From Patescibacteria group bacterium (lineage in GTDB: Bacteria > Patescibacteriota > Patescibacteriia > UM-FILTER-42-10): a stretch of DNA of 63,646 nt. A program made the position numbers and the translations under genes. Within the stretch, counting starts at the first letter, position 1. Each line of letters opens with the position of its first letter. Below the pieces are notes generated by a model. That model was not told where the DNA came from. It saw nothing but the letters and a program-made list of their open reading frames with translations, and made no database searches. This document shows, one piece after another, positions 6,860 to 60,631 of this stretch. Location of the stretch: contig JBAYKW010000008.1 of the NCBI GenBank assembly GCA_041664365.1, positions 1 through 63,646 on the forward strand. The letters run 5' to 3'.

Positions 6860-7114
6860 ATGACCTTCCCACTTTATGTATTACTAATAGGATATGCGGT
6901 AGTAATTTTCATATATTTAATTTTTAGCGCAATTTTGTTGTATCACATATTCCGTTTTGGGTATTGGGACTCGTCAACCAAGCTGATGGTTTTTCTTTAT
7001 TTTGCCGGCTCACTGGTAATTTTTATTTCAACATTCATTTTCTCCATTGATATTGACTGGTCTGAATCAATTACGCTATTCTCTAATATCCAGTTTAATT
7101 TTTCTTTCAACTAA
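6860..7114 (+). CDS. Small two-TM hypothetical protein
   Basis: Hydrophobic ORF in operon context; YHIFRFG motif. Confidence 0.7.
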   Translation: MTFPLYVLLIGYAVVIFIYLIFSAILLYHIFRFGYWDSSTKLMVFLYFAGSLVIFISTFIFSIDIDWSESITLFSNIQFNFSFN

Positions 7115-7117
7115 CCT

Positions 7118-7726
7118 ATGGATCCATTTAAATATTTTCCAGACAAGAGGCCAAACGAGGAGATCGTTTTGTTGCTGAGAAGACACTGGCACGAAATAAT
7201 AGGGTATTTTCTTGTCTTGATTTTGGAGATTGTTCTGCCGATAATTATTTTTATAGTATTTTTAAGATTTACGGAATTTGTCTGGGATAAGGATTCACCA
7301 ATATCCGTACTGATATTTTTCAGTGCAAGCTCATATTACTTATTTATTTGGCTTTTCTTTTTCCATCATTGGATCGACTATTATTTGGACGTGTGGGTAG
7401 TAACTGACCAAAGAATTATTAATATTGAACAAAAAGCACTTTTTTCCAGGACTGTCTCAGAATTGAATATGAGTACGATACAGGATGTTACCAGTGAGGT
7501 GAAAGGAAAGCTGGCGACCATACTGAAATTTGGCGATGTCCATATTCAAACTGCAGCGGAAGAAAAGCGTTTTGTTTTTGAAAAAATTCCGAATCCCCAG
7601 GAAGTAGCAACAAAAATCACTGAACTTCATAGATTGGCAGAGCATAAGAACGGCTTAAATAATCCGACCAGCCAGTTGCAAAATGATCAATCGGAAGCTA
7701 AAGACAATGTATCTCAAACATTTTAA
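7118..7726 (+). CDS. Membrane protein with bacterial PH (bPH_2) domain
   Basis: LLRRHW, DVWVVTDQRII-IEQ, IQDVT, FGDVHIQTA. Confidence 0.85.
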   Translation: MDPFKYFPDKRPNEEIVLLLRRHWHEIIGYFLVLILEIVLPIIIFIVFLRFTEFVWDKDSPISVLIFFSASSYYLFIWLFFFHHWIDYYLDVWVVTDQRIINIEQKALFSRTVSELNMSTIQDVTSEVKGKLATILKFGDVHIQTAAEEKRFVFEKIPNPQEVATKITELHRLAEHKNGLNNPTSQLQNDQSEAKDNVSQTF

Positions 7727-8738
7727 CTACCTACTTCCTAATAAGCATATAGCGCAAAAGCCCGTTAATCCTCGAGACCACTCGAGACTTTTAGTTTTGG
7801 ATAAAAATAGCGGAGAATTACAGCACAAGCATTTTTACGATATTTCGGAGTTTTTAAACAAAGGGGATGTCGTTGTCATGAATAACTCCAAGGTAATCCC
7901 AGCTAGGTTGCTTGGACAAAAAGAAACCGGCGGGAAGATGGAGATATTTCTTCTGAACAAGGTTGGTAAGGGGCTGTGGGAAGTACTGGTCGGTGGGAAA
8001 GGGCAGAAAGAAAATTTAACTGTTTTATTTCCGAAAAATTTAAAAGCAACGCTGATTGAAAGGAAGGAGGGCGGGACCTGGATTGTAAGTTTTAATAAAA
8101 AAGGTGAGGAGTTTGAAAAACTGTACAAAAAAATCGGTGAAGCTCCGGTACCGCCATACATTAAAGAGAAATCTGATCTGAAAAAATACCAAACGGTGTA
8201 CGCAAAGAAAGAAGGTTCAGTTGCTGCCCCGACCGCCGGCTTTCATTTTACCAAAGGATTAATCAACAGCCTGAAAAGGAAAGGGGTAGAATTCCAGGAG
8301 GTTACCCTGCACGTGGGACTGGGTACGTTCCAGCCGGTAAAGGTATCCGATATTACCAAACATAAAATGCATCCGGAGTTTGTTGATGTACCAAAAGAAA
8401 CATTGGCAAAGTTATGGCAGGCTAAGAAAGATGGACGCAGAATTATTGCGGTCGGTACAACTAGCGTACGTGTATTGGAAACGGTTATGGCCGAATTGAA
8501 GAATAAAAAAAATCCCCCAAAGGAATCTTTCAAAGCATGGGTGAATATTTTTATTTATCCCGGATTCAAGTTCAAATTTGTGGATGCTATGATCACTAAT
8601 TTTCATCTGCCGGAATCAACTCTGCTGATGCTGGTATCCGCTTTTGCCGGCAGGAAGAATATCCTGCGTGCATATGAGATTGCCAAGGAAAAAAACTATC
8701 GTTTTTATAGTTTTGGTGATGCGATGCTGATTAAATAA
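7707..8738 (+). CDS. queA: S-adenosylmethionine:tRNA ribosyltransferase-isomerase
   Basis: IAQKP, PPYI, YQTVYA, GSVAAPTAGFHFT, TLHVGLGTF, VGTTSVR, TNFHLP, YRFYSFGDAM. Start moved to the second ATG. Confidence 0.98.
   Translation: MYLKHFNYLLPNKHIAQKPVNPRDHSRLLVLDKNSGELQHKHFYDISEFLNKGDVVVMNNSKVIPARLLGQKETGGKMEIFLLNKVGKGLWEVLVGGKGQKENLTVLFPKNLKATLIERKEGGTWIVSFNKKGEEFEKLYKKIGEAPVPPYIKEKSDLKKYQTVYAKKEGSVAAPTAGFHFTKGLINSLKRKGVEFQEVTLHVGLGTFQPVKVSDITKHKMHPEFVDVPKETLAKLWQAKKDGRRIIAVGTTSVRVLETVMAELKNKKNPPKESFKAWVNIFIYPGFKFKFVDAMITNFHLPESTLLMLVSAFAGRKNILRAYEIAKEKNYRFYSFGDAMLIK
8689..8738 (+). repeat. queA 3' tail, copy 1 (attL-like, functional gene end)
   Basis: 47/50 identical to 10669-10718; 8679-8738 is 52/60 identical to 13249-13308. 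Confidence 0.9.
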
Positions 8739-8752
8739 GAATCAATAAGAAA

Positions 8753-8780
8753 GAAGCCGCGATTTCGAAATCGCGACTTC
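8753..8780 (+). terminator. Hairpin terminator after queA, homologous to 13319-13345
   Basis: GAAGCCGCGA-tttcgaaa-TCGCGACTTC. Confidence 0.7.
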
Positions 8781-8867
8781 GTTTACTTAATTTAGGCATT
8801 TAAACTCCGAATTTCAATTTACTATAGGTGTAATATAGGCTGTGTACGGGGTAATTGGTGATGTATT

Positions 8868-9506
8868 CTAAAAAAAATTAGCGGTTGGGTTAAGTGGTCG
8901 GTGGAAAGTAATGCCGTTATTGGCAGGTTTATTTTTAAACTCTTGGTCCGTTAATGTTATGCGTATACCATATTCATTATCAATAAATTCATATTTATCA
9001 AAATAATTTATACCCTCTTTATTACCAACCTCTATATTAGGGTCTTCTTTTTGATTTATATAAATATCAATTATTCGGCCTTGTTTTAAATTGAATTTAT
9101 TAGGGATAATAAAGTAACCTGGTATAATTTGGTTGTTAAAAGTATGCAGGGAATCCAAATCAAATATAATGATTTTTAAAATATTAATAGGGATTTTTGA
9201 TTTGATACCTGGTAATTTTTTTATTTGTAGTATATGGCCATTCTTAGATTTAAAATGGGATACACCTGATATATAATGGTAAGTAAATTCTATAAGTTCT
9301 ATATTTAAACGTTTAAATTGTTTATAGTAGTTGTCAATAATTTCACTAGACTTATCTACGTCATATAATGCTCCTCCAAATTTATTTTTTGGGAAACATA
9401 TTTTTACATAAGGCTCCTTGTGTTTATCGGATTCACTTAGTATGTTAAATATTTTAAATAAATTATTTTGATCATCTTTGATTAATAATCTATCTATTTT
9501 TATCAT
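8868..9506 (-). CDS. Hypothetical protein, extremely AT-rich
   Basis: 212-aa ORF rich in I/K/N; no recognised family. Confidence 0.7.
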   Translation of the reverse strand: MIKIDRLLIKDDQNNLFKIFNILSESDKHKEPYVKICFPKNKFGGALYDVDKSSEIIDNYYKQFKRLNIELIEFTYHYISGVSHFKSKNGHILQIKKLPGIKSKIPINILKIIIFDLDSLHTFNNQIIPGYFIIPNKFNLKQGRIIDIYINQKEDPNIEVGNKEGINYFDKYEFIDNEYGIRITLTDQEFKNKPANNGITFHRPLNPTANFF

Positions 9507-9512
9507 ATATTT

Positions 9513-10169
9513 TTATTTCTTATAATGCTGAATAATCTGATTAGTAGTCTCTGAAATGTTTAATGATCCATCTACGGAAAGCCACGATAAATTTTCTTGT
9601 ATCACTTGTTCTTTTAAGATACGTGCAGACGCAATATCTCTTTGCATCCAATTGCGCCATGCTAATTTTCTATCTGAAGTTTTAGCAAGGACATTGTTTA
9701 TCCAGGGTCGTTTACTGTAGTTGTGTAATTGGAACTCTTTGGTAGCTATTAAATAGTATACATGTTGAGGTGATGCCAGCAATGGAGCAAGGGTGTGCGG
9801 AGATACATATCCATCAAATAGCAAAGGCCTTTTGTCTTCTTTCAGACATTGCTTCAAATCTTCTTTAATTAACTCAAATTCTTCATCTGAAAATGATTCT
9901 TCTGTAGCAATTTGTTCTTCGAGAGGTCGAAGCCAAAGATCATCACCAGTAATTCGGGAGATTTTGTAAAAGGTAGGATGTTCTGTGGGGGATGCTTTTT
10001 CACGGTGTTGATCTATCCATTCATCAGAGTGATATACATTCCAATTCAGACGTTCTGCAATCAAAGAAGAGATCGTAGTTTTTCCAGAACAAACTGATCC
10101 GCTAAGCCAGTACATTCGGGAAAAATCTTTCTTTGTAAACATATTTTTTAAATCAGATATTCTTATCAT
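9513..10169 (-). CDS. P-loop kinase-like (nucleoside/shikimate kinase fold) protein
   Basis: N-terminal Walker A SGSVCSGKTT; LLFDG strand; C-terminal LSVDG. Confidence 0.75.
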   Translation of the reverse strand: MIRISDLKNMFTKKDFSRMYWLSGSVCSGKTTISSLIAERLNWNVYHSDEWIDQHREKASPTEHPTFYKISRITGDDLWLRPLEEQIATEESFSDEEFELIKEDLKQCLKEDKRPLLFDGYVSPHTLAPLLASPQHVYYLIATKEFQLHNYSKRPWINNVLAKTSDRKLAWRNWMQRDIASARILKEQVIQENLSWLSVDGSLNISETTNQIIQHYKK

Positions 10170-10563
10170 TTTTTATTTCATCACCAGTTGCGACACATTC
10201 TATTTCAATGCGAGCTCCTAATGGTAAGGCTTGAACTGCCAGGGCAATTCTAGTGGGTAAAATGTCTTTAAATTTAGCAGTATATATTTCGTTTACTTTA
10301 GCATATTCAGCCATATCAATTAAATATATACGCACTTTGGTTAAATTATCTAAAGTCCAACCAACTTCAGATAAAATAGCTTCTATATTATTAAATGTTT
10401 GTTTTGTTTCTATCTCAATTCCACCTTCTACTAATTTTCCCGTATCTATGCTGATGCCAATTTGACCGGAAATCTCCAATCTATACTTTGAAGATTCTAA
10501 AATTGCTTGAGAATATAACTTTGGTGCTACTGGCGCTTTAGATGATGTAATTGTTTTTTTCAT
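10153..10563 (-). CDS. RidA/YjgF/UK114 family protein
   Basis: YSQA, ISGQIG, KVRIYL-DM--YAKVNEIY, PTR, LPLGARIEIE. Confidence 0.93.
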   Translation of the reverse strand: MKKTITSSKAPVAPKLYSQAILESSKYRLEISGQIGISIDTGKLVEGGIEIETKQTFNNIEAILSEVGWTLDNLTKVRIYLIDMAEYAKVNEIYTAKFKDILPTRIALAVQALPLGARIEIECVATGDEIKNDKNI

Positions 10564-10585
10564 ATTATTTGGTTATTGAATTTCG

Positions 10586-10718
10586 CCTAAGAGGTTGTTT
10601 ACACACCTATTGGCATCATAGCCAACATTAGCTAAAAAGTAAATAATTTTTTTAATTAAAATACAAAGAAAAAAACTATCGTTTCTATAGTTTCGGGGAT
10701 GCGATGCTGATTAAATAA
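10586..10718. repeat. 133-bp right-end module: promoter arm plus queA tail copy 2 (attR-like)
   Basis: Colinear without indels with 13176-13308 (offset 2590); the tail still reads NYRFYSFGDAMLIK*. Confidence 0.85.
10615..10643 (-). promoter_or_regulatory. Inward-facing promoter TTTACT-17-TATGAT
   Basis: Inside the repeat module, pointing at the RidA gene. Confidence 0.6.
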
Positions 10719-10766
10719 AAACAGCCCAAGTGAGGGACGTGTGTGGGTGGTTATAGAGGAAGAAGA

Positions 10767-11609
10767 TTATCTTGAAAAATTATCTAATTTCTTCAAATCT
10801 TCTTTATTCATTTGCCAGTCTGCTGAAGTAGCAATTTCTTGTAAGTGTTCTAAATTTAATGCTTTCGGTATTGTGATTACCCCTTGTTTTGATACTAGCC
10901 AATTCAACGCTATTTGGGCTTTTGTCTTGCCGTATTTTTTTGATAATTGTTCAAGAATAGGAAAGTCAGTATTAAATAAATCTCCTCTGGCAAAAGGGCG
11001 ATAAGCTATAATAAGTATATTATTATTTTGACAGAATGGAATTATATCAGATTCCATATTAGCAGTATTTTGCCCCACATTTCTAGTTATTAAATTGTAT
11101 TCAATCTGGTTGGCCACTATTTTATTTTGACTGAATTTTTGTGCTTCTTTTAACTGTAAAACAGAAAAATTGCTCACTCCTATAAATTTAGTTTTATTAG
11201 TTTCTACTAAATGATTCATAGCTCGCATACTATTTTCTATTGAGAAATCTGGGTTTGAAGAATGAATTAAGTATAAATCAACATAAGGGGTATCAAGTCT
11301 CATCAGACTATCGTCCATTGCTTTTATTATTCCATCATAACTTAAGTTTTCCTTAGCTACTTTGGTTGTAATAAACAATCTTTTTCTATCAAAACTTTTT
11401 ATTGCTTGACCTACCAATTCTTCAGTGTGTCCTTGGGCATATATTTCAGCTGTATCGATATGCGTCAACCCAAGTTTTATAGCATTTTCTAAAGCTTCAA
11501 TACATTTCTGATCATTATTATATTTTGGTGTTAAATCTCCACCCATTCCCCAAGTACCAATACCGATTACTGGTATCTGTATTGCAGATGTGACGTTTGC
11601 AAATTTCAT
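10767..11609 (-). CDS. Aldo/keto reductase
   Basis: IGIGTWGMG, IDTAE-Y, LFITTKV, DLYLIHS, IGVSNF, NQIEYN, IAYRPF, AQIALNW, IPKA. Confidence 0.95.
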   Translation of the reverse strand: MKFANVTSAIQIPVIGIGTWGMGGDLTPKYNNDQKCIEALENAIKLGLTHIDTAEIYAQGHTEELVGQAIKSFDRKRLFITTKVAKENLSYDGIIKAMDDSLMRLDTPYVDLYLIHSSNPDFSIENSMRAMNHLVETNKTKFIGVSNFSVLQLKEAQKFSQNKIVANQIEYNLITRNVGQNTANMESDIIPFCQNNNILIIAYRPFARGDLFNTDFPILEQLSKKYGKTKAQIALNWLVSKQGVITIPKALNLEHLQEIATSADWQMNKEDLKKLDNFSR

Positions 11610-11679
11610 CTTTTATAAGTTAATCTTATTTTCATTCGTGTCGGATATACGATGATGGATGATGTTAAAAGACTCGTTA

Positions 11680-12093
11680 TTATAGCAATTTAAAATAATC
11701 ATCAACATTGTTTATTGCCTCTTCTAAAGTATTATACCTTACTACTTTTATATTAGAGTTTCCACTTATCATCGCTGATAATCTTTTATCGGCCTGCTCT
11801 CTATACAAACACAATATTTTTTTATCTATATTTTCAGCTTTACCAATTTCATAGCCAATACCAAGCGAAGGGGTTGATACTTCAGCAATTATAACATCAG
11901 CTTCTTTCACCCATGCCATATCACGATTATAGATAAGTTCATCGGTAATGTCTTCACCTACACTAGTGAGATTTTTATCACCAAGGTGTTCGGTTAAAAC
12001 TTGGCCGTATGTAGCGAGGTGTTGGATTAATTTAAAATATAAATCCATATCATCCCTACCACCACGTATTGATCCAGCAAAATAAATTTTCAT
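11680..12093 (-). CDS. Nucleoside 2-deoxyribosyltransferase / DNPH1(Rcl)-like N-hydrolase
   Basis: KIYFAGSIRGGR, IYNRD--W, ADVIIAEVS-PSLG-GYEIG. Confidence 0.9.
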   Translation of the reverse strand: MKIYFAGSIRGGRDDMDLYFKLIQHLATYGQVLTEHLGDKNLTSVGEDITDELIYNRDMAWVKEADVIIAEVSTPSLGIGYEIGKAENIDKKILCLYREQADKRLSAMISGNSNIKVVRYNTLEEAINNVDDYFKLL

Positions 12094-12144
12094 ATCTTTT
12101 TAATATCTTGTTTATTTAAAGGGGTTATGAGTCTTTCAATTTTT

Positions 12145-12203
12145 CCTAATACTGTATTTACGCATCTGTTAACAGCATAGCCAAAATTAGCTTAAAAGTA
12201 AAT
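12145..12203. repeat. Partial (59-bp) module copy without queA tail; carries promoter TTTACT-17-TATGCT (minus, 12174-12202)
   Basis: 54/59 identical to 13176-13234, including a 38-nt exact run. Confidence 0.9.
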
Positions 12204-12228
12204 TAAATTACAGTTCACATTTTTAATA

Positions 12229-13137
12229 CTAAGATGATCTATAAATATTTTTTATTGCCTTTTCCCAAACCACTGCATGAGTCGCGCCCGCGGTTACTAA
12301 AATATTTTTATGACCACTTTTTTTAGCATCCAAAATAACATCAATTGCGTTATTATCTCTCATAGTATTCATATCGTGAGCTACGGAGTCTGGTGAAGGA
12401 TCGGAAGATTTTGTAAATAAATCTTGATCTTTCGCACGAAGAGCTTCATTCTGCGACCTGGATGCTAATTCATTAAATGGTAATCCGGCTTCTTTTTCAA
12501 CTACTTCGGCAATTTTTTCTGAAGTTAAGTCTAGATATTTTTCTACTCCCGGAACCGCAAATAAAATCAGGTCATATAAAGCTTCCAAGGATGGTTCTTT
12601 GCCATCTTCATACAATTTTCTCATTCCATAAGTTGCCAGCCATGTTATTGCTTCGGTGGTGTTATGCTTTAATTCATTGTTTTCAGCTTTTATATTTAAG
12701 ACAGCCTTTAATTGGTCTAAGCCCGAGATATCCCATGATTGAACTTTGAATCCTTGTTTTCTGGCTAGCCAGGTAAAATATAATTGTTCCTGTCGATCTA
12801 TTATTTCTTTAGGATCCATTGCCGATATTTCATCAATTGTTTTTCCTGGAAAATATGTTTCCAGTGTGCTAGCCACCTCGGTTAAAACAAGATCAGGATT
12901 GATTTCAGCAAGTGTTTTTTCAAAATCATGGATCTTTTGTAATTGATTTGTATGTTTTCTGCCATCAATAAAAATATTTTCCTCGCCGTTTGTTGCCGAA
13001 TAAGCATATCTATCTTCATATTTTATTTTTTCCACTTCATCGGGACTTCGAAGCAGACTTTTTGGATCACTCACAGTTTCATCTATAGATGAGCCCTGTT
13101 CCGTAGATTGCGTTTCCTTTCGTGTTCCAAATTCCAT
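12229..13137 (-). CDS. Hypothetical protein, possible TraB/GumN/TIKI-like metallohydrolase fold
   Basis: DLVLTE near the N-terminus; MRDNN and ILVTAGATH near the C-terminus, resembling the RD..vvvG.aH pattern. Confidence 0.5.
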   Translation of the reverse strand: MEFGTRKETQSTEQGSSIDETVSDPKSLLRSPDEVEKIKYEDRYAYSATNGEENIFIDGRKHTNQLQKIHDFEKTLAEINPDLVLTEVASTLETYFPGKTIDEISAMDPKEIIDRQEQLYFTWLARKQGFKVQSWDISGLDQLKAVLNIKAENNELKHNTTEAITWLATYGMRKLYEDGKEPSLEALYDLILFAVPGVEKYLDLTSEKIAEVVEKEAGLPFNELASRSQNEALRAKDQDLFTKSSDPSPDSVAHDMNTMRDNNAIDVILDAKKSGHKNILVTAGATHAVVWEKAIKNIYRSS

Positions 13138-13175
13138 GATTTTATTAATAAATATAGTAATTTATTACTTCTTCA

Positions 13176-13308
13176 CCTAATAGTGTATTTGAGTACCTGT
13201 TAACAGCATAGCCAAAATTAGCTTAAAAGTAAATAATTTATTAATCAAATTGCCAAGAAAAGAAACTATCGTTTTTATAGTTTCGCCGATGTTATGCTGA
13301 TTAAATAG
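13176..13308. repeat. 133-bp right-end module: promoter arm plus degenerate queA tail copy 3
   Basis: Tail reads IAKKRNYRFYSFADVMLIK*; promoter TTTACT-17-TATGCT at 13205-13233 (minus). Confidence 0.85.
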
Positions 13309-13318
13309 AAAAAAGAAA

Positions 13319-13345
13319 GAAGTCGCGATTCGAAAATGCGACTTC
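13319..13345. terminator. Hairpin terminator homologous to that after queA
   Basis: GAAGTCGC...GCGACTTC followed by TTTT. Confidence 0.7.
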
Positions 13346-13408
13346 TTTTATTTATAAACACTCTTTATTGATAATTCAACAATGATATTCGATAATCTAT
13401 GATTATAC

Positions 13409-13888
13409 TTATTGGACGTGTCTTCTTAGTACTTCAACACTGTTTTCATCATTAGATCCCCCTATTGAACTTTTTATCAGATCAATGAAATTAATTCTTT
13501 CATATTCTTGGGCGACACGTTCCATAATATGACCTTTTTCAGCTAACTGATGCCTTCTATCGGTTGAATCCTGATCGGCAGTCTTGCCACTATTATTTTC
13601 ATCATCATTATCTAATACATCTAGCATTTCTTCAATTTCATCTTCATTAGTTGGTAGATCGTGTCCTTCAAACAAATGTTTTACAACCTCTTCCTCTATT
13701 CTTGAATACATGTCATGAATCGCTTGCTTTGGATCAGCCCCAGCATCAATTTCTTCATCGTATAATGATAACGCGGCTCGTATCATGTCAGTATTTTTTA
13801 AAGCTTCATTAACTGCCTTTTGAGCATATTTTAATGCTTGCTGATCAAGTGCCGCTTCATTTAATCTTCCTTCGAATGGATGATTCAT
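13409..13888 (-). CDS. Acidic hypothetical protein
   Basis: 159-aa D/E-rich ORF. Confidence 0.7.
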   Translation of the reverse strand: MNHPFEGRLNEAALDQQALKYAQKAVNEALKNTDMIRAALSLYDEEIDAGADPKQAIHDMYSRIEEEVVKHLFEGHDLPTNEDEIEEMLDVLDNDDENNSGKTADQDSTDRRHQLAEKGHIMERVAQEYERINFIDLIKSSIGGSNDENSVEVLRRHVQ

Positions 13889-13934
13889 AATTTTATTGCT
13901 TAGTTAATTATTTTTGCTGATTAATTAAACTTTT

Positions 13935-14213
13935 TTAGTCCTCCCACCCGCATGCGTCTGCGCATTCATTCAAACCAATTGTATCAAAACAAACGGTTTT
14001 GCCGGATTCTTCTTCGCAGAATAATTTAGTACATTTTTTAACACAGTCATTTAACTTTCGTAATTCATATACATCCTTTATATTGCCGGGATTTAATTCA
14101 ATATTGTCCGCATTCTCTATGTTTTGATTAATATCTGCATTGTTCGGTTTACTGACAGACCAAATCAATATTGCGACAATGGCGAAAATAATAATAAAAA
14201 GTAATGTTTTCAT
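13935..14213 (-). CDS. Small membrane-anchored Cys-rich protein
   Basis: N-terminal TM; C-terminal C-x3-C-x3-C...C...C-x3-C. Confidence 0.7.
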   Translation of the reverse strand: MKTLLFIIIFAIVAILIWSVSKPNNADINQNIENADNIELNPGNIKDVYELRKLNDCVKKCTKLFCEEESGKTVCFDTIGLNECADACGWED

Positions 14214-14216
14214 GAG

Positions 14217-16034
14217 TTAATATTGTTTTATCAGTTCAGTCCCACGGTAGTAGTGTTTTAAAATATCTTCATATAAACTACCATTCTCTGCCATGGAACG
14301 CGCACCGTAGGCACTTAGACCGACCCCGTGCCCGAGTAATGTCCTTCCATTACATCCCGGGTCGTCAACGGAAACAAGCCAGTTGTAAGGTCCGCCGGAC
14401 CAGACTTCTTCCCACGATCTGGTTCGGCCGTCAGTTTGCGAAAAATATGGTGTGACAACTATTTCATTTTCATAGGTCACCATTACTCCTTCCGTATCAA
14501 TAATCGCTTGGGTAATATTCGGTGAGCGGGTTTCCAGACCGTATCCGCGGTAGACCTGGTCATTGACCGCGTCAATTGTGAAGTTTTCATCAGCATGTTT
14601 TGTACCAGTTTGGTAATGATATATTGCATAAGTACGCGCGGCTGTCAGTAGGGCTTTTAAATAATCCGGGTCATTGTCATTGCTGGCCTCGGCGATGCCT
14701 CTTAAATATGATTCCAAAGGTAATTCGTTGATAACCCATAATTTATTTGTTGCACTGGCATAGTGAATTTCTATAATTCCCCGGAAACGGTTATCGTTGA
14801 GTGATGTGTTCCACTCCGGCCGATGTTCGTAGTTGGTAATTTCCATAATTGTATCTGTGCTTTTCGGGATTGCCCGGAGCGGTAAATTTGAAATAATTGT
14901 TTCATGCGCAGTGACAAGGGAATAGCTGTTATTCTCATATTTAAGCGTAATAATACTGTCTTTAGCAAAACTGCCAATCAGTGTGTTGTTAGTATCTCTT
15001 ACTTCATAGTCGCCACTTCCAGAAACTGAGACTCCGGCCGTTGTTGGATACAACCCGACTCTGATATCAGGTTCGCCGAGAGTTTCATGGACAGGTTGGA
15101 CACCATTGGTCACATTTATTTTGATTTTTAACCCGCCGCTTTTTATCCAGGTAAGGTTTTCCGCAACCAGGCCAAAATTTTCTGTATAGCTTCCCAGGGT
15201 ATCAGGTGCCTGCAGGGCAAAAGTAAACCGCACCTTCTCCCCGGTTTTTACGGGGACCCCCTTCATAATCGTCGGGCGATATGCAGTCGGCCAGAGGCTG
15301 TGCCGGAAGGAACTGGTTCTGCCGATCGGTTTATTGATATTCAAAGCAACGAAGTGGTTCCCATTCGGGTACCAGGTTTGAGAGCCGGTATTTTTAAACT
15401 CCACCCACGCGGTGAAAGCTTTACCGGGTTCGATATTTATCTCCTTGTTTGATTGAGCAACTAATTTTGCTGAAAAATGCGGAAGGGGATTACCGACACG
15501 CATTACGATTTCCAGATCACCACCGCTGATCCAGGTCAGGTGTTCGGCGACCAATCCGAATTTTTCCGAATATTCACCGACTACTTTCGGGGCGGTTAAT
15601 GCAAAACGAAAAATTCCTGTTTCTCCCGGTTTGACGACGGACGTCTGCATTTTACTCGGACGGTAGTATGCCGGCCAAAAAACATCCCGGAAGTTACTGT
15701 TTCTTCCTGTCGGGTTGGTAACGTTTAATGCTAGGAAATTTTTTGAATTATTGTACCAGGTTTCCGTCCCGGTGTTCTTAAATTTTGCTTCAAAAGTCAG
15801 TCTTCCACCCGGGTTGATGTTTATTATTTTATAACTCTTGCTGATCAGTTCCGCCTTATATTTATTTGAAATATTATTTTCATAGCTTGATGCATTGGCA
15901 GGGAGAATCAGCTGATTATTTTCCAAATAATGACCGACTTTATTGAGAGTGAATGATGCAATTATAACAACCAAGAACACCAGTAGTAGCCAGCTTGTTT
16001 CCCGTAAAAATGATTTTTGTTTTTGTTTTTTCAT
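14217..16034 (-). CDS. SpoIID/LytB-domain protein with two NBR1-like Ig (FW) domains
   Basis: INELPLESYLRGIAE, ALLTAARTY, DQVYRG, GHGVGLSAYGA, ILKHYY; two F-NTG--TW...G---RF-F---AP repeats. Confidence 0.9.
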   Translation of the reverse strand: MKKQKQKSFLRETSWLLLVFLVVIIASFTLNKVGHYLENNQLILPANASSYENNISNKYKAELISKSYKIININPGGRLTFEAKFKNTGTETWYNNSKNFLALNVTNPTGRNSNFRDVFWPAYYRPSKMQTSVVKPGETGIFRFALTAPKVVGEYSEKFGLVAEHLTWISGGDLEIVMRVGNPLPHFSAKLVAQSNKEINIEPGKAFTAWVEFKNTGSQTWYPNGNHFVALNINKPIGRTSSFRHSLWPTAYRPTIMKGVPVKTGEKVRFTFALQAPDTLGSYTENFGLVAENLTWIKSGGLKIKINVTNGVQPVHETLGEPDIRVGLYPTTAGVSVSGSGDYEVRDTNNTLIGSFAKDSIITLKYENNSYSLVTAHETIISNLPLRAIPKSTDTIMEITNYEHRPEWNTSLNDNRFRGIIEIHYASATNKLWVINELPLESYLRGIAEASNDNDPDYLKALLTAARTYAIYHYQTGTKHADENFTIDAVNDQVYRGYGLETRSPNITQAIIDTEGVMVTYENEIVVTPYFSQTDGRTRSWEEVWSGGPYNWLVSVDDPGCNGRTLLGHGVGLSAYGARSMAENGSLYEDILKHYYRGTELIKQY

Positions 16035-16294
16035 TGTTTTTCAAAGAAGAAAAAAGTGCTTCATTGAACCAAAGTCAAAGCACTTCGCAGTTGTTGTGTT
16101 GATATTTCATAAGTTGTACCTTGGTTTTTATTTTTGCCAGAAACTGTTGCTTCTGCTATGTTTATATTATCATAAAATTGACCATTTGTCAATGTGATTT
16201 GAATAGTGATATCATGCATTTGGAGCATAAAAATAAGTTAATTGGCGGGGTCTCTTTGGTCCCGTTTTCTATCAGAATAATATCAGCCGAATAA

Positions 16295-17722
16295 ATGTCA
16301 TTAACCCGGAAAATCGCACATAATACCATCATCCAAATTGTCGGTAAGGCAATATCAACGATTATTGCGCTAGTTGTTGCTTCATTACTTTTCCGTTATC
16401 TCGGCAAAGAAGGCTACGGAAACTATACGACAGTCATGGTTTTTTTGCAGTTTTTCGGCATCATGGTAGATATGGGGTTGTATATCATTCTGACGAAGAA
16501 AATTTCAGAAGCAGGTGCTGATGAAGAGTCGCTGGTTGGAAATATCTTTACGATCCGACTTATTTCCGCGGTGGTATTTTTGGGGGTTGCACCATTACTC
16601 GTGATATTTTTTCCATATCCTTCGGTTGTAAAAACTGGTGTGGCTTTAGTGAGTCTGTCTTTCCTGTTTGTGACACTCAATCAAGTTTTGCAGGGAGTAT
16701 TCCAAAAACATCTTAAAATGATGCGGGTTACTATTTCCGAAATTCTCGGGCGACTGGTTTTGCTGGCCGGCACTTTCCTTGCTGTATATCTTGATCAAGG
16801 CTTGACGACGGTTTTATTGGTGGTTGTCTTGAGCTCATTTACCAATTTTCTTTTTACTTTTATTTTTTCCCGGAAGTTTGTAAAAATACGGCTAGTTTTC
16901 GATTTTCCTGTGTGGCGAAGAATTATCAAGGAAGCGTACCCGATTGCCTTGGCGATTCTTTTTAATCTGGTCTATTTCAAGGCGGACATTCTCATCCTGT
17001 CTTTGCTTAAATCTCAATCAGACGTGGGGATCTATGGCGCACCGTTCAAAATACTGGAGGTATTAGTTACATTTCCGGCCATGTTCGCAGGACTGGCTGT
17101 CCCGGTTTTGACTCAGGCATTTACAGCGATGGATTATGAAAGATTTCGGCGAGTACTCAGCAAGTCATTTGACTTTCTGGTCATGGTTGCCCTGCCAATG
17201 ATTGTAGGCACAATTTTTATTGCAGAGCCGGTGATTGATCTGATCGCGGGCGCGGATTTTGTCGAATCAGGGCAGGTACTGCAGATTCTGATCGTTACAA
17301 CGGGTATCATATTTATCGGCAATCTTTTTGGCAACGCTGTAGTGGTGGTTAATCGACAGAAAGAAATTTTGAAATACTATATGGCAATCGCAGCAATTTC
17401 TGTGGGAGGATGCTTATTACTAATTCCCCGCTATTCATATATCGGTGCCGCCTGGATGACGGTGGTGTCCCAATCGCTGATCACTCTCGCTACTATTTAC
17501 GTTGTCTGGCGGAAGACTAAAATATTTCCCTCGCTTAAGTTTTTTACTAAAGCACTGATTGCTTGTACCGGCATGGCCGTCGTTTTATTTTTATTAAAAG
17601 GCTTTTCACTTTGGATATTAGTATCCGCCGGTATCATCGCTTATGGCGCTATACTCCTTTTGCTGAAGGGGATATCTAAGGATCTGATTAAAGAAATAAT
17701 TGCTTCGCCTGCGAAAGAATAA
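16295..17722 (+). CDS. Wzx/MATE-like polysaccharide flippase
   Basis: RKIAHNT, RYLG--GYG-Y, DILILS, VGIYG; about 12-14 TM segments. Confidence 0.9.
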   Translation: MSLTRKIAHNTIIQIVGKAISTIIALVVASLLFRYLGKEGYGNYTTVMVFLQFFGIMVDMGLYIILTKKISEAGADEESLVGNIFTIRLISAVVFLGVAPLLVIFFPYPSVVKTGVALVSLSFLFVTLNQVLQGVFQKHLKMMRVTISEILGRLVLLAGTFLAVYLDQGLTTVLLVVVLSSFTNFLFTFIFSRKFVKIRLVFDFPVWRRIIKEAYPIALAILFNLVYFKADILILSLLKSQSDVGIYGAPFKILEVLVTFPAMFAGLAVPVLTQAFTAMDYERFRRVLSKSFDFLVMVALPMIVGTIFIAEPVIDLIAGADFVESGQVLQILIVTTGIIFIGNLFGNAVVVVNRQKEILKYYMAIAAISVGGCLLLIPRYSYIGAAWMTVVSQSLITLATIYVVWRKTKIFPSLKFFTKALIACTGMAVVLFLLKGFSLWILVSAGIIAYGAILLLLKGISKDLIKEIIASPAKE

Positions 17723-45877: not shown

Positions 45878-46021
45878 AGAATAAGAAACAAAAATAAAAA
45901 ACATTTAAATATGGATATGAATACTAACAGTTATACAGCTGTTTTGGCTGATATTGGCCAAATATGCCATATAAATGCCACCATTAATAAAGTACGTTAA
46001 TTGCGTGCTTTTTTTGTAAAT

Positions 46022-49000
46022 ATGGATGACTTGCTAAAAAACCAAAACCCGATTAAAAAGACTTTTATCTATATAAAAGCGCTTTTTTGCAAAAATCTTG
46101 CTTTGGAATACCACAAGGTAACGCCACAAACGGATCGGGGTGTCTACACACGCCCATATACTAATTTCAAACAGCTGATATGGACGATACGGTTTTTTGG
46201 CTTTATTCTGATTTTTTCAGCAATATTAATTCTAAATCTGGCTGATTCTAACGTAAGCACCGCGGCCAGTTCAATCAATATTTCAGGTCATGCTTACCAG
46301 GATTTCGGTAAAACGCCGATTGACGGTAGTGTTACCGCCAAAACAGTTCAGTTGAAGGTTGAAGGGGCTGGTGCTTATACAGATGAGATAACGACCGCCG
46401 ATGGAGCCTGGTCTATATCAGCAGTGAATGTTAATTCTGGGGATATAGTTACGGTGTTTTTAGATGATGAATCAGAAGAGGCTACAACTGCTTTTATTAC
46501 TGATGAAACGTCACAAGTGAACGTGAATTTGTATAGTAACTATGTAATTTTACGGTCAGATACGGGAACGATAACCAATAGTGATTTATTGACGGGAGAT
46601 AATGGCGATGATGATATCAAATATATCGTTTCAGGGGCGGATATCAGTTTTGATCCGGGATTTAATTTATATATCTGGACGGGTGATATCTATACTCCGG
46701 GCGGTTTGGTAACAACCCAGGGCGGAGGAGATTTCCGGATCGGTGATGGTGCGACGGTAAATATGAATAATAATGCTGTTGCTGTCAGCGGTTCCTGGAA
46801 AAATGAAGGCACTTATAACCCTGGCAGTAATACGACAACACTGAATGCTTCTGCCGGCACAGAAGCTATTGATAATAGTGAAGCAGATTCTGTGGCGGGC
46901 GCCGATTTTAATGACTTGATAATTAATGATAGTGGGTCCGGTGCAGCTTATGTGCCAGGTGGCAATGTAGATGTGGCAAATAATATAACAATTGATGGTG
47001 GTACTTTAAATATGAGCGGTCCGCAAGTTTGGTATTTTACTGATGATACGGATGGTGCGGCAGCAAACAGTCGAAGGATGAAGTCGGAAGATCCAGCCGG
47101 GGTAGCCAGTGATATCGCAACTTGTTCTGATAGTGAGGTTGACCATAACAAACAATTTTGTGTTTTTTATCCGACAGGAACTTCGGGATTTATTGGTGCA
47201 TCCCAACCTGCCACTTTCCAATCCCGTGCGTATATGTTAAATAATGGCATGCCGATTAACGGGTCCATTGCTGCGGGTAGTTGGTCAGTGAATCTTACTA
47301 GAGTGTATCATCAGGGTTATTATCAGTACGATACTATTGGTATCTCCGCGCGTCTTTGGAAGGTTAACTCTGATCTTAGCAGCCCAACTGCAATATCAAA
47401 CTGGACTATAGTAGCGACAGGAAATACGGAAGGAGCTACCGATAATACAATTACTTTTGCCGGTATACCCCAGCAAGATTTAAGTAATCAAATTTTAGCG
47501 GTTGAGTTTGAAGTCAGAACAGGTAATGCTTTTCATCTTGCCAGCAGTGGTGAAACAACAATTTCTCTGAGGGTAAATGAAGGCGGTTCAAAACAAAAAT
47601 TAAATACGCCGGCTTTTACACCCCAAATAAATGTTGGAGGAAATTTTGATAATAATGACACGTTTACTCATCAGAACGGGAGAATCGTTTTTGATGCGAT
47701 AGATACTGATAACACTATAGAAACAGGAGTAAGCAGTTTGTATGATGTCGTATTCCAAGGTGACGGCGGAGACGGTACATGGGCAATTCAAACTGATGAT
47801 ATGAATGTTGCCAATACTCTGGATGTTGATGCCGGTGATGCGGTGAATATTAATTCCGGTAGAGTTTTATCTTTAGCAAAAACTTCGGGTTCAGTTCTGA
47901 CTCTGGATGGAATAATTGGCGGGTTAGGCAGATTGGATTATAAAACCTCCACTGTTTTCCCGACAACCGGAACGATCTCATCAATTTTGCGTTTGGACAC
48001 GACCAGCAATGATCAAACAATGCCGGTTCGAACTTATGGTGGTAATGTGGAAATATATAATAATTCCGCCACAAATGCCCGTACCGTGACTCCTGCTGCC
48101 GGAACACATACTGTTGCTGGTGATTTAATTATCCAGGCTGCCAATACTCAGAATATTTCTTTTGCCGGAGCAACAAACGATCCGACAATGAATATTTCCG
48201 GTGATCTGGATTTTGCCGTATCGGGTGGTGGAGTGCAGACTGTCACGACCGGAAGTAATCCTTGGACTGTTTCTGGCAATGTCGATTTAACCGGCGGAAC
48301 CTTCACTACCGAGACTGGTAATATACTTGTCATGAACGGAACGGATAAAACTTTGACCAGCGATGCAGAAAACCTCGAAAATTTTACGGTCAGCGGAGGA
48401 GCGGTATCATTAGCGGATCCGTTAACGGTCAATGAATCAGTCGGCATATCGGCAGGATCTTTTTCATCAGGTGGAAATGACTTAATAGTCAAAGGCGATT
48501 GGTTAAACAGCGGTGGAGCATTTAACCACGGCAGTGCCGGAGTTACATTCAGTTCGACGGATGCCGGTGAAATTATTGAGGCCGGCCTGTCCCCGTTCTA
48601 CGATGTTGAATTTAATCATGCCGGCGGCGGTTGGACTATCCAGACAGACAACATGACGGTTGCCAATGATTTGAATTTAACCAGTGCTTCATCATTTGTG
48701 GTGGAAAGCGGACGGACGGTTGAAGTTCAAGGCAATTTTATCAATTCCGTGGGCGGAGTCAGTACTACCTGGACCGGTTCAACATTATACTTAAACGATG
48801 CCAGTGAACTGGATATGATTAACACCAAAACCGCTGGCGCTGATACATACGGCACATTGCGGATCGGTGGAAGTGACGGAATTGGAATGTGGAATTCTAC
48901 CGCCGACGCGATCACTGTAGACAGCGGTGGATGTTTAGAATCATTTGATCATAATACAACAGACGGGCAATTAAATATCTACGGCTCATGCAATACCCGG

Positions 49001-51217
49001 TCGAATGAATATTGGGCATACGCTACAGATTTCGACGGTACTGACTTATCTGGAGGAGATGAAAGGCAGACGAATATAAGATTCAGTCCGAGCGCATCAT
49101 TTGCGGTTGATCAAGCTGATTCCTTGCTGATTCAAGGCCAGTCAGCGGGCAGTAATAGAACGCAGATTTCCAGATTAAGTACCGGTAATTTCGGCATGAA
49201 TGTCGCTGGCACGATCAGCGCCAGATATTATGATTTTGACTATCTAAATGATTCCGGTTTAAATATTTCATCAACCGCTACGGTATCAGAACTGTCGGAC
49301 GGCACCTTTGATAATATTGGAGCGGGCTCCAATCCTAGTTATATTTCTCTGCTGGGATTAACATCTAATGATTCATATAGTAATGTGGTTTTTGATTCGG
49401 CATCAGATGGCGCGGATGCCAATGCTGTTTACAATGTCAATGCGAACGGCCCGGGAATTAATTGGACATTTGCCCAGGCCAGCGGCAACAAAAGCGGAGA
49501 AAATTTTGACAGGGAAATAAACGGCGCACAGATAGCATGGACCATTTATTTTTCAGTAATTAATGACGGATTGGTCAGTGACAGCAATGTGACAAATGAT
49601 GCAACCCAGCTTTCCGCAAACTGGTCTACAGCAACAGATGACGGGATTGATCATTTTGCTTATGCCATAGGAACTACCTCGGGCGGTAATGAAGTTGTTG
49701 ACTATACCGATGTTGGTTCCAGTAAAAATTTTACCCGAACCGGGCTAGCGCTTTTGAATGGTGTAACTTATTACACAACAGTTAGAGCATATAATTCTGA
49801 TAATGAAGTATTGGAGTCAATCACAAGTAATGGGATTACTGTCGATACAGCTGAGCCGACATTTTCCAATATAGTAATCACACCTGCTGAAAATTCATTT
49901 ACTGTTTCCTGGACGAGCAATGAACCGACTACCAGCATCATTCATTGGGGTCTGACAGATGCGTATGGAAATATTACAGTTGGTGATTCAGTAAGAACGA
50001 CACAGCATGAAGTGACTGTGACTGGACTTGCTGGTAATACCACCTACCATTTCATGCTTACCGGAACGGATACAGCAGGGAATACGGGAGAGTCGGCCGA
50101 CAATCTGGTTACAACCAGTGCATTAGAGAATACCATTATTACGAATGTACAAGTTTCGAATATCACGACAACTTCAGTGCTAATCTCCTGGACCACTAAC
50201 CATGATGCTGATTCAAAAGTCCGGTACGGCATAAGCACTGAATATGGTGGTGAAGTTTATGATGCTGATCTGGTTACAATGCATGAATTATTAATCTCGG
50301 ACCTTGTACCGGATACAAGATATCATTATGAGGTATTGAGTACCGGCAATACGATAGCAATTGATGCGGATGCGACGTTCTCAACACTGGCGGAAGGAGA
50401 AGAAAACACATTACCTGCTATTCCGACAATTATTGCTCCGGAAAGTGAAACAATTGTAAATACCACGAGACCATTAATTACCGGTTTGGCTGAATCCGAT
50501 AACGATATATTTATTTTAGTTGACCGTGAACTGGTCGCGGTGGTAAAAGCCACTAACGATTCCAGTGGTACCGGCAATTTCTATTATTATCTTAAGGAGC
50601 CCCTGCTTTTTGGCAAACATAGTATTGTGGTTAGGGCGCGGGATGCAGACGGGCAGGTCAGTCCTGAATCCGGTCCAAGAGTGTTCTCAGTGAATCCGCC
50701 ATATCCAACACCAATCGTATACGCTCCAACTTTATATGATGGTGATAATTATAGAGTTACAATTCCTGGATTAGCAATTAATGACAGTCAGATTCGGGTA
50801 TATTTGAATGGAGTAATTGTTAATACATTTATGGTTGAAAATAATATTTCAGGGACAGCGAATTTTAATGCATTAGTTAGCGGACTAACGTTCGGTGTGA
50901 ATGTTATTGAAATTGATGCTGTTGGCTTAGACGGAAAAGTAAGCGAAAAAACAGATCCGTTGACGGTAACGATCAATCAGTCTGAACAGAATGTTACTGA
51001 ATATGTGCTCGAAGGAGAAACAGTGCAGACCGAATTATTTTATGAAGTGTCCGAAGGAGATTCGCTGTGGAAACTGGCAGAACAGTTTTATGGTGATGGA
51101 AATATGTGGAATCATATAAGTTTTGCTAACCAAGAGGTTTATTCTTCACTAAAAGACAATCCTGGCATAATTATGCCCCGTTGGAGGTTGAAAATTCCAG
51201 CACTAGTGTTAAACTAA
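46022..51217 (+). CDS. Giant surface protein: beta-helix-like region, Fn3/PAP-N-like and Ig-like domains, C-terminal LysM
   Basis: N-terminal TM; G/T/S/N-rich repeats; WTSNEPTTS--HWG, H-V---GL---T-YH; YEVSEGDSLWKLA. Confidence 0.85.
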   Translation: MDDLLKNQNPIKKTFIYIKALFCKNLALEYHKVTPQTDRGVYTRPYTNFKQLIWTIRFFGFILIFSAILILNLADSNVSTAASSINISGHAYQDFGKTPIDGSVTAKTVQLKVEGAGAYTDEITTADGAWSISAVNVNSGDIVTVFLDDESEEATTAFITDETSQVNVNLYSNYVILRSDTGTITNSDLLTGDNGDDDIKYIVSGADISFDPGFNLYIWTGDIYTPGGLVTTQGGGDFRIGDGATVNMNNNAVAVSGSWKNEGTYNPGSNTTTLNASAGTEAIDNSEADSVAGADFNDLIINDSGSGAAYVPGGNVDVANNITIDGGTLNMSGPQVWYFTDDTDGAAANSRRMKSEDPAGVASDIATCSDSEVDHNKQFCVFYPTGTSGFIGASQPATFQSRAYMLNNGMPINGSIAAGSWSVNLTRVYHQGYYQYDTIGISARLWKVNSDLSSPTAISNWTIVATGNTEGATDNTITFAGIPQQDLSNQILAVEFEVRTGNAFHLASSGETTISLRVNEGGSKQKLNTPAFTPQINVGGNFDNNDTFTHQNGRIVFDAIDTDNTIETGVSSLYDVVFQGDGGDGTWAIQTDDMNVANTLDVDAGDAVNINSGRVLSLAKTSGSVLTLDGIIGGLGRLDYKTSTVFPTTGTISSILRLDTTSNDQTMPVRTYGGNVEIYNNSATNARTVTPAAGTHTVAGDLIIQAANTQNISFAGATNDPTMNISGDLDFAVSGGGVQTVTTGSNPWTVSGNVDLTGGTFTTETGNILVMNGTDKTLTSDAENLENFTVSGGAVSLADPLTVNESVGISAGSFSSGGNDLIVKGDWLNSGGAFNHGSAGVTFSSTDAGEIIEAGLSPFYDVEFNHAGGGWTIQTDNMTVANDLNLTSASSFVVESGRTVEVQGNFINSVGGVSTTWTGSTLYLNDASELDMINTKTAGADTYGTLRIGGSDGIGMWNSTADAITVDSGGCLESFDHNTTDGQLNIYGSCNTRSNEYWAYATDFDGTDLSGGDERQTNIRFSPSASFAVDQADSLLIQGQSAGSNRTQISRLSTGNFGMNVAGTISARYYDFDYLNDSGLNISSTATVSELSDGTFDNIGAGSNPSYISLLGLTSNDSYSNVVFDSASDGADANAVYNVNANGPGINWTFAQASGNKSGENFDREINGAQIAWTIYFSVINDGLVSDSNVTNDATQLSANWSTATDDGIDHFAYAIGTTSGGNEVVDYTDVGSSKNFTRTGLALLNGVTYYTTVRAYNSDNEVLESITSNGITVDTAEPTFSNIVITPAENSFTVSWTSNEPTTSIIHWGLTDAYGNITVGDSVRTTQHEVTVTGLAGNTTYHFMLTGTDTAGNTGESADNLVTTSALENTIITNVQVSNITTTSVLISWTTNHDADSKVRYGISTEYGGEVYDADLVTMHELLISDLVPDTRYHYEVLSTGNTIAIDADATFSTLAEGEENTLPAIPTIIAPESETIVNTTRPLITGLAESDNDIFILVDRELVAVVKATNDSSGTGNFYYYLKEPLLFGKHSIVVRARDADGQVSPESGPRVFSVNPPYPTPIVYAPTLYDGDNYRVTIPGLAINDSQIRVYLNGVIVNTFMVENNISGTANFNALVSGLTFGVNVIEIDAVGLDGKVSEKTDPLTVTINQSEQNVTEYVLEGETVQTELFYEVSEGDSLWKLAEQFYGDGNMWNHISFANQEVYSSLKDNPGIIMPRWRLKIPALVLN

Positions 51218-51257
51218 GACAACAGATACTTTATTCTTGAACATTTTAAATCCCCTA

Positions 51258-60469: not shown

Positions 60470-60631
60470 TTCACTTCCCGAGGATGTTGTGTTTTTGCGT
60501 CTCGTAACGAACAATCGATCAAAACATGCAAAGGATTGCATGAGTATGTGAGTTTAACGGAACCTGGGAAGAAAGTCAATTTCACATAGACCACCTTAAA
60601 ATAATGCGTAAATGTGTTATACTAAAAAACT

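Follow-up and report, generated by a model that had tools for sequence, protein, structure and literature searches.

Cis-mobilizable elements (CIMEs) accrete in tandem at a gene's 3′ end, a behaviour described for the ICESt1/ICESt3-related elements at fda of Streptococcus thermophilus (PMC5704250), and tycheposons remodel additive flexible islands in streamlined genomes (bioRxiv 10.1101/2020.12.28.424599). Here we describe an island that resembles such systems in part. It lies at positions 8739-14216 of a 63.6-kb stretch of the ultra-small genome of a groundwater member of the Patescibacteria; the whole stretch that was analysed (63,646 nucleotides) is referred to as the window. The island fills the gap between queA and a SpoIID-like gene and contains three small cargo modules. 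Each of them is headed by a conserved promoter-like sequence of 61 nt, the arm (copies w2, wT and w3), and two of the arms adjoin copies of the queA 3′ end, which we call tails or 'att' copies. Modules without a recombinase of their own are known from other settings: host XerC/XerD mobilises pdif modules and IMEX elements in trans, and the pdif sites are found as inverted pairs on plasmids. To our knowledge few mobile elements have been recognised in the tiny genomes of the Patescibacteria (Candidate Phyla Radiation), in which the gain of accessory genes is poorly understood.

A preliminary description, made from the sequence alone, had proposed a system of expression cassettes mobilised in trans, with an arm beside each 'att' copy. 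This idea stands in part: the arms precede unrelated genes and there is no recombinase in cis, but we found no fixed break of homology, no attC sites and no single platform. Our own reading, to which we give about an even chance of being right, is that the island is additive and strain-variable and grew as one small cargo module after another entered at the last ~65 nt of queA by Campbell-type insertion. Of the explanations considered it is the best supported, because the target gene's end is duplicated, the site is empty in relatives, the cargo is low in G+C content (GC) and the units are stacked.

Duplicated ends of queA

The insertion target queA (tRNA ribosyltransferase-isomerase; Pfam Queuosine_synth, E 2.4e-131) occupies positions 7683-8738 on the plus strand. 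Its 3′ end (the last ~65 nt, finishing with ...KEKNYRFYSFGDAMLIK and the stop codon) belongs to a repeat family of three members, located at 8674-8751, 10654-10731 and 13244-13321. The genuine gene end at 8674-8751 is itself the third member of this 'att' family, with 'att' copy 1 at 8677-8738 (~62 nt), and the 'att' sites represent a housekeeping gene whose 3′ end has been partially duplicated. As the genuine end is one of the three copies, an arm adjoins only two of them and not every copy as had been claimed. A 21-mer of the tail had 0 matches in 100 dinucleotide-preserving shuffles.

Tail 2 (10654-10718, plus strand) is a pseudo-copy of the queA 3′ end, ..KEKNYRFYSFGDAMLIK and stop included. 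The tail 3 feature (13244-13345, plus strand) consists of the queA 3′-end copy at 13244-13308 and the hairpin T3 (about 13316-13345). Copy 3 additionally repeats the terminator hairpin of queA (8744-8771 vs 13310-13337), and the outer repeat, which takes in this terminator, is about 105 nt long and 87% identical. Tail 2 and the tail found in one relative (L002:12603-12668; loci of relatives carry the prefix L) show only synonymous differences from queA, though both are without a start codon. The tails look like the ends of once-functional queA alleles rather than long-decayed fragments. In tail 3 there are two non-synonymous changes and a TAG stop. The closest match of a tail tends to be the queA of the same genome: 87% for tail 3 against the window queA and 88-89% for the L002 tail against the L002 queA. 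Among 79 other queA loci in which duplicated queA ends were sought, L002 was the only one to have them.

The hairpin T1 (8753-8780), G+C-rich and situated 3′ of queA, was found in a terminator scan and shares homology with T3 and with hairpins of L001, L084 and L087. On both strands it has the appearance of a terminator. Its sequence, AAGAAGCCGCGATTTCGAAATCGCGrCTTC, follows queA in the window, L001 and L084, tail 3 in the window, and the arm directly in L087 (L087:13059-13090). An unrelated hairpin occupies this position in the empty-site genomes L089 and L090. Tail 2 holds a palindrome of its own (7-7-7, AAACTAT-N7-ATAGTTT), which on the minus strand reads as a hairpin followed by a T-run and is restricted to the queA of the clade of the window organism. 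We infer from it that weak termination may occur upstream of each arm.

A queA-tail copy without an arm separates the 273-aa gene from the NUDIX gene in L087 (L087:12427-12476). The palindrome in this copy is preserved by two paired changes (AAATTGT...ACAATTT vs AAACTAT...ATAGTTT) and its last 22 nt equal queA. Selection on the hairpin, templated repair of the palindrome or a hybrid attP/attB core could each produce such paired changes. The flank after tail 2 resembles the L087 flank after queA by eye; the resemblance was not significant when tested.

An insertion hotspot between queA and SpoIID

Syntenic loci of Patescibacteria metagenome-assembled genomes were collected by scanning a genome collection with QueA and by examining the context of the closest homologues. 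Both flanks of the island are syntenic with the relatives throughout, at 72-80% DNA identity. The site is empty in L089, L090 and L099-L103, where the stop codons of queA and the SpoIID-like gene are 22 nt apart. L084, L096 and L097 have the layout queA, T hairpin and a gene for a 159-aa protein (0.6 kb of intergenic content in L084/L096). L001 has a methyltransferase gene and a NUDIX gene (1.4 kb), L002/L086 have genes for 81-aa, 155-aa, NUDIX and 84-aa Cys-rich proteins (1.8 kb), and L087/L098 have genes for 64-aa, 84-aa and 273-aa proteins together with a different NUDIX gene (2.1 kb). In the window organism the insert measures 5.4 kb. Since the content differs in each genome type, the gap between queA and SpoIID is an insertion hotspot. 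GC supports a distinction between island and flanks: it is 25-36% across 8800-14000 and 40-47% on both sides.

The order tail 3, T3, 159-aa gene in the window reproduces the uninterrupted order queA, T hairpin, 159-aa gene of L084. For this reason tail 3 is probably the displaced original end of queA, and 8677-13243 would mark inserted DNA that brought a replacement end with it. The homologue of the 159-aa gene at L084:11043-11521 (also in L096 and L097) is split into ORFs (open reading frames) of 125 and 34 aa, an apparent frameshift or pseudogene seen in three independent assemblies.

The arm and the genes behind it

The segments 10582-10721 and 13172-13311 aligned without gaps at an offset of 2590 and are 76% identical over 140 nt, which confirms the colinear repeats (10586-10718 and 13176-13308) of the preliminary description. 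The third copy without a tail, wT at 12145-12203, was likewise recovered. It is 92% identical to 13176-13234 and 78% identical to 10586-10644, and it has a 38-nt run in common with w3 (12166-12203 = 13197-13234), of which the 31-mer is exact and had 0 matches in 100 dinucleotide-preserving shuffles. All three copies do carry, on the minus strand, TTTACT-17 nt-TATGAT (w2) or TATGCT (w3 and wT) and then a leader of ~29 nt to TTAGG. The position of these motifs is as follows: in w2 (10586-10653) the −35 TTTACT is at 10638-10643, the −10 TATGAT at 10615-10620 and TTAGG at 10586-10590; in wT (12145-12207) the −35 is at 12197-12202, the −10 TATGCT at 12174-12179 and TTAGG at 12145-12149; in w3 (13176-13243) the −35 is at 13228-13233, the −10 TATGCT at 13205-13210 and TTAGG at 13176-13180. 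Behind the motif, at distances of 22, 51 and 38 nt, a different ORF begins in each case (ATG at 10563, 12093 and 13137), close to the 20-50 nt given before.

An nhmmer profile of the arm was searched against the window and 103 loci (1.4 Mb). It matched at the queA/SpoIID locus only, with three matches in the window and a single one in each of L001, L002/L086 and L087/L098. No arm homologue preceded an integrase in this search. In the searches made, the arm is restricted to a single chromosomal hotspot and to a narrow clade. The exact degenerate arm pattern occurred in the metagenome collection in the L001 and L002 contigs, plus a chance match in a radical-SAM gene. Sigma-70-type hexamers at a spacing of 17 nt (TTTACT-17-TATGAT/TATGCT) are present in 6/6 arms. 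Counted from TTA-TTTACT to TTAGG, the arm measures 61 nt in five of the six copies and 62 nt in the other. The promoter half has 25 invariant positions out of 32 and the leader half 10 out of 29; no copy deviates in the −35 hexamer, the −10 hexamer varies at one position and the spacer at 6 of its 17. Pairwise identity of the arms is 69-90%. The pattern of conservation suggests a promoter-like module of fixed length, presumably active as a promoter.

The arm is always located at the SpoIID-proximal end of the cargo block and points into the block. Behind it we found five unrelated genes across four genome types: RidA, a deoxyribosyltransferase, a 302-aa protein and two NUDIX genes. The NUDIX genes of L087 and L002 are not orthologous and have only the NUDIX box in common. 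Arm and tail are separable. There are arms without a tail (wT, L001 and L087, the last of which abuts the T hairpin directly), and L087 has a tail without an arm. The homology of the arms does not break at one fixed base, a point that the preliminary description had put up for testing: in w3 and L087 it ends after TTAGGTGA, in w2 after TTAGGCGAAATT and in wT ~13 nt further on. Depending on the copy it passes TTAGG by 3-20 nt, and the breaks are spread over ~17 nt. For the proposal of a fixed promoter with a capture site this means that the conserved promoter-like module before changing genes holds and that the capture site is not supported.

The boundary motif varies as well: it is GTTAGGC or GTTAGGT in L001, L002 and L087, and CTTAGG or ATTAGG in the window copies. 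Among the contigs of the source metagenome, one additional and more abundant organism bears an arm, while at the depth of the window organism there are no further copies. The arm of this further organism, on a 6303-nt contig with depths of 37.6 (run X1) and 19.3 (run X2), matches 13182-13237 with 6-9 mismatches. It has GATAAG in place of GTTAGG and GATAAGTGG in place of GTTAGGCG, and its boundary reads GATAAGTGGAAATT vs GTTAGGCGAAATT, followed by AATTATTAATCATAAACAAGTATGAAGAAA.

Two side observations concern the leader. The 14-mer CTGTTAGGCGAAAT, with which the L002 arm ends, recurs in isolation and without mismatch at L002:11419-11432 (L086:11233-11246) upstream of the 81-aa gene. Near it are AGCTAAT at roughly the arm spacing, decayed promoter hexamers and then a second TTTTTTACTTTTA; the site looks like a relic arm or a second junction. 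A mini-ORF of 12 codons, MKDDLGDFNVLI and a stop, comes directly after TTAGGCGAAATT at L001:12375-12413 and L002:12492-12530 (minus strand). The two copies differ by synonymous changes only, and arm wT retains the remnant TTGAAAGAC. The mini-ORF may be a leader peptide or the stump of a gene that once stood behind the arm.

Several other functions of the arm were considered. A Shine-Dalgarno (SD) role for TTAGG(T/C)GA was rejected: an SD-like motif is found in only 10 of 54 window ORFs and the sequence lies 17-50 nt from the start codons of the cargo. Given the 10 of 54, leaderless or SD-independent initiation may predominate in this organism. In the window, TGTTATAAT or TGTTATACT (226-251 and 60606-60631) precedes the ATG of the ORFs at 252 and 60632 by 7-9 nt. 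The arm is not a coding remnant (stops in all frames, and no three-base periodicity by eye), and a plus-strand promoter TAGCCA-17-AATAAT obtained from a scan was dropped, being not kept in wT, L001 and L087. In the Rfam search only tRNAs reached the gathering threshold across the window; within 8600-13500 two matches had E<1 (0.66 and 0.97), both far below gathering, and the arm does not correspond to any known RNA. When arm plus tail were folded as single-stranded DNA, on both strands, no attC-like structure resulted (z from −1.3 to +0.8 against shuffles), and a 7-bp hairpin in the tail was the sole structure. We found no inverse core site RYYYAAC upstream of the TTAGG motif. Neither arm-like inverted fragments nor terminal inverted repeats at the module boundaries rose above the shuffle background, and no inverted-repeat pair brackets a module. 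The modules thus do not have the inverted repeats which, together with a short target-site duplication, characterise a transposon or miniature inverted-repeat transposable element. Looking by eye for XerC/XerD half-sites in arm and tail, we saw the 7-7-7 (or 9-7-9) palindrome and no evident XerD-arm consensus.

Cargo modules and search for recombinases

All genes from 8868 to 16034 are on the minus strand and converge with queA. Module 1 (8868-10563) encodes RidA (10153-10563), a P-loop kinase-like protein (9513-10169) and a 212-aa all-beta protein (8868-9506), in ORFs that overlap or are closely packed. Module 2 (10767-12093) encodes a nucleoside 2-deoxyribosyltransferase-like protein (11680-12093) and an aldo/keto reductase (10767-11609), and module 3 (12229-13137) a single 302-aa protein with a weakly ChaN/succinoglycan-protein-like fold; the modules hold three, two and one genes, respectively. 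Next to them are the genes for the 159-aa and a 92-aa Cys-rich protein (13409-14213), which have no arm and are present or absent among the relatives. The conserved SpoIID-like gene (14217-16034; Pfam SpoIID, synteny with relatives) delimits the hotspot on the right. Following the direction of transcription, one passes SpoIID-like, 92-aa Cys-rich, 159-aa, T3, tail 3, arm w3, 302-aa, arm wT, deoxyribosyltransferase-like, aldo/keto reductase, tail 2, arm w2, RidA, P-loop kinase-like, 212-aa, T1 and queA. The nearest tRNA genes are at 103-177 and from 24412 onwards. Elsewhere in the window, two adjacent giant ORFs of 1738 and 2301 aa occupy 46001-58142 on the plus strand.

That no integrase, transposase or replication gene lies between the repeats was upheld by searches of these ORFs against Pfam, NCBIfam and PHROGs. 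A recombinase family was found neither in the island ORFs nor in 30 other window ORFs (40 tested in all) nor in the cargo of L001, L002 and L087. Structure models of the two proteins that matched no family point the same way. The model of the 302-aa protein (mean predicted local distance difference test score, pLDDT, 83.5) shows a weak likeness to ChaN/succinoglycan proteins and that of the 212-aa protein (pLDDT 76.9) is all-beta without a significant match; neither has a recombinase-like fold. Homologues of the 302-aa protein occur in unrelated contexts with neither arms nor tails. The closest of them (53%) adjoins a NUDIX gene in an unrelated short contig (L092:1083-2954, L093), where the arm and the queA tail are absent. 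Viral contigs searched for arm and core gave no match, and the same was true for BLAST against phages and plasmids.

Integrity of the assembly

As several related strains share the sample, we considered that the assembly might be chimeric, with the repeats of arm and tail acting as bridges between alternative cargo alleles from co-occurring strains. The source sample does contain at least four related arm-bearing organisms, and the unitigs do break at the 38-nt arm repeat common to wT and w3. This is, however, the only place where they break: one unitig (8573-12195) crosses T1, module 1, arm 2, tail 2 and module 2. The unitig depth in the source run is 15.6-19.8 across the whole of 7000-16500, that is uniform and not made up of fractions adding up to the flank depth, and in a second, independent sample contigs span the junctions at 100% identity. 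On these three grounds the tandem array is real, and an artefact is very improbable indeed. We also looked for excision joints in the assembled contigs of three DNA runs; all candidates were spurious overlaps of 20-29 nt or belonged to the L002-type genome.

Proposed mechanism and rival explanations

Under serial insertion, cargo modules without a recombinase would be added in tandem at the queA 3′ end in the manner of CIMEs. Each module would be a self-contained expression unit on the minus strand, made up of an arm (sigma-70-type promoter TTTACT-17-TATGMT and leader) at the end distal to queA, a cargo gene or operon, and a hairpin at the unit end, which is T1 in module 1 and apparently the weak tail 2 palindrome in module 2. 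Insertion at the gene end would leave an extra copy of the queA 3′ end beside the arm of the queA-side module, which would be why arm and 'att' adjoin, and later deletions would part arm from tail, as in wT, L001 and L087. Because the modules carry no recombinase, the agent would be either a recombinase encoded elsewhere and acting in trans, or none at all in the case of decayed CIME-like remnants that are shuffled among related strains by homologous recombination via the queA, terminator and arm repeats. We infer promoter activity, the order of insertion and the responsible enzyme.

Several observations weigh against serial insertion. No integrase-bearing relative of the modules was found in the 103 loci, the viral contigs, the phage records or the plasmid records, and for this reason both the decayed element and the trans-acting recombinase are without positive support. 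Promoter-like hexamer pairs are not enriched in the sequence (41 found, 35.5 expected in shuffles); with such pairs as frequent in shuffled sequence, it is conservation alone that marks the arm as a promoter. Some cargo genes may own proximal promoters, and the genome has leaderless-looking genes with TGnTATAAT near the ATG. Arm carriers number only about five genome types. The arm-tail junction is identical in w2, w3 and L002 and may have arisen once and then been copied, in which case it would not be the end of an element. Finally, the outer repeat of ~105 nt includes the terminator and the tails are nearest to the queA of their own genome, both of which homology-driven insertion or gene conversion fits at least as well as site-specific recombination does.

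These last points lead to an explanation without any mobile element, the main rival, which we consider unlikely but which deserves a full account. The arm would be a vertically inherited backbone promoter or leader at the SpoIID-proximal edge of the hotspot, and cargo would be exchanged after DNA uptake by RecA-dependent double crossovers in queA/T and in arm/SpoIID. Tandem copies would come from ectopic pairing of a queA end with a resident tail or from unequal crossing-over, and rare illegitimate joins would have fused genes to the promoter, with selection retaining those that were expressed. Consistent with this, the arms of different genomes are as conserved (69-90%) as the core flanks (72-80%) and never change their position, the junction of arm and tail goes back to one origin, the tails are most like the queA of their own genome (87% for tail 3, 88-89% for L002), the outer repeat of ~105 nt runs through the terminator, the break points are scattered rather than fixed, and the ORFs searched contain no recombinase. 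On the other hand, the first duplication of a queA end at an empty site requires a circular or site-specific intermediate, and four or five independent gene fusions clustered within ~17 nt are hard to obtain by random illegitimate recombination. The copies (76-87%) are by now too diverged for efficient RecA exchange, and the low GC of the cargo indicates a foreign origin and not exchange within the clade only.

A further explanation is an integron-like or Xer-module-like platform, in which the arm itself is the recombination site, with the crossover near (G)TTAGG (similar to the integron core GTTRRRY) and the recombinase elsewhere. In its full form the arm would be both promoter and recombination site of a cassette system of Patescibacteria that has not been described before: a host recombinase acting in trans would load, excise and reshuffle self-expressing cassettes, made of arm, cargo, terminator and queA-mimic core, at the queA 3′ end. 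The chance of this full form seems small to us, and we judge the platform as such to be improbable too. In its favour are the fixed 61-nt module with its invariant TTAGG, a conserved patch in an otherwise variable leader, GTTAGGC or GTTAGGT in L001, L002 and L087, the isolated exact CTGTTAGGCGAAAT upstream of another L002 gene near a decayed promoter half, the joining of five unrelated genes within ~17 nt of TTAGG, and the lack of a recombinase in cis. Yet the homology passes TTAGG by 3-20 nt to an extent that differs per copy, the window copies have CTTAGG/ATTAGG and the further organism GATAAG, arm plus tail folds no better than shuffles (z −1.3 to +0.8) with the inverse core site absent, the arm was confined to one locus and one clade in the searches made, and the 40 window ORFs tested include no recombinase, whether of the IntI type or of another kind.

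Comparison with known systems

The gap between queA and SpoIID, 22 nt where it is empty, otherwise takes up 0.6-5.4 kb of unrelated genes for small enzymes (among them RidA, NUDIX, deoxyribosyltransferase, aldo/keto reductase, methyltransferase). An active arm promoter would make each module a natural 'plug-in expression cassette', and a trans-acting recombinase, if involved, would amount to a new mobilisation system. If the arm were itself the recombination site, an ultra-small genome would have an integron-like platform for sampling genes without IntI or attC. Even in the ordinary reading, queA is added to the 3′-end insertion targets and the locus is a compact example of an island that grows with no resident recombinase.

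With integrons the locus has in common a conserved promoter-bearing sequence before variable genes and a boundary motif similar to GTTRRRY. It differs in having neither IntI nor an attC hairpin, a promoter copy for each module, multi-gene modules and a break that is not fixed. In our tests we found no IntI-type gene beside the array, no attC sites and, with three arms in the array, no single Pc/attI platform for promoterless single-gene cassettes. The integron-like logic without attC of the preliminary description is therefore right about attC, as attC-like structure is absent and the folds are no better than shuffles, and not supported as to a single platform, as each module has its own arm, modules can be multi-gene and no single platform promoter exists. 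The pdif modules and IMEX elements are similar in their recombinase-less cargo, short conserved sites and, presumed for the window modules, dependence on a host enzyme; but no Xer-type 11-6-11 site was recognised in arm or tail, and the window repeats are direct and chromosomal.

Tycheposon islands offer a closer parallel in the streamlined genome, the fixed hotspot, successive integrations that push older material inward, scattered copies of the target gene and small metabolic plug-in cargo. Tycheposons have a tyrosine or serine recombinase, often replication genes, and tRNA targets, whereas at the window locus we found no recombinase, no replication module and no tRNA target; the target is the protein-coding queA.

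The likeness to CIMEs goes further. In both, direct repeats that are partial 3′ copies of a housekeeping gene bound foreign DNA, the units are in tandem, and there are no integrase or transfer genes inside. The island has att-type flanking repeats (the three queA ends), its cargo is free of integration and transfer genes, and relatives have the empty site. A related integrase-bearing element specific for the same att was not found for the window modules in the 103 loci, viral contigs, phage records and plasmid records. Differences are that the units are only 1-2 kb with a promoter-like arm at one end of each, that the outermost repeat includes the terminator, and that the target is queA and the host belongs to the Patescibacteria. 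Judged by analogy, the island is most like the tandem accretion of integrative elements and their recombinase-less derivatives, the CIMEs, at a gene end. Its unusual trait is that one conserved promoter-like arm of 61 nt heads each of the tiny modules and stands before unrelated genes across genomes.

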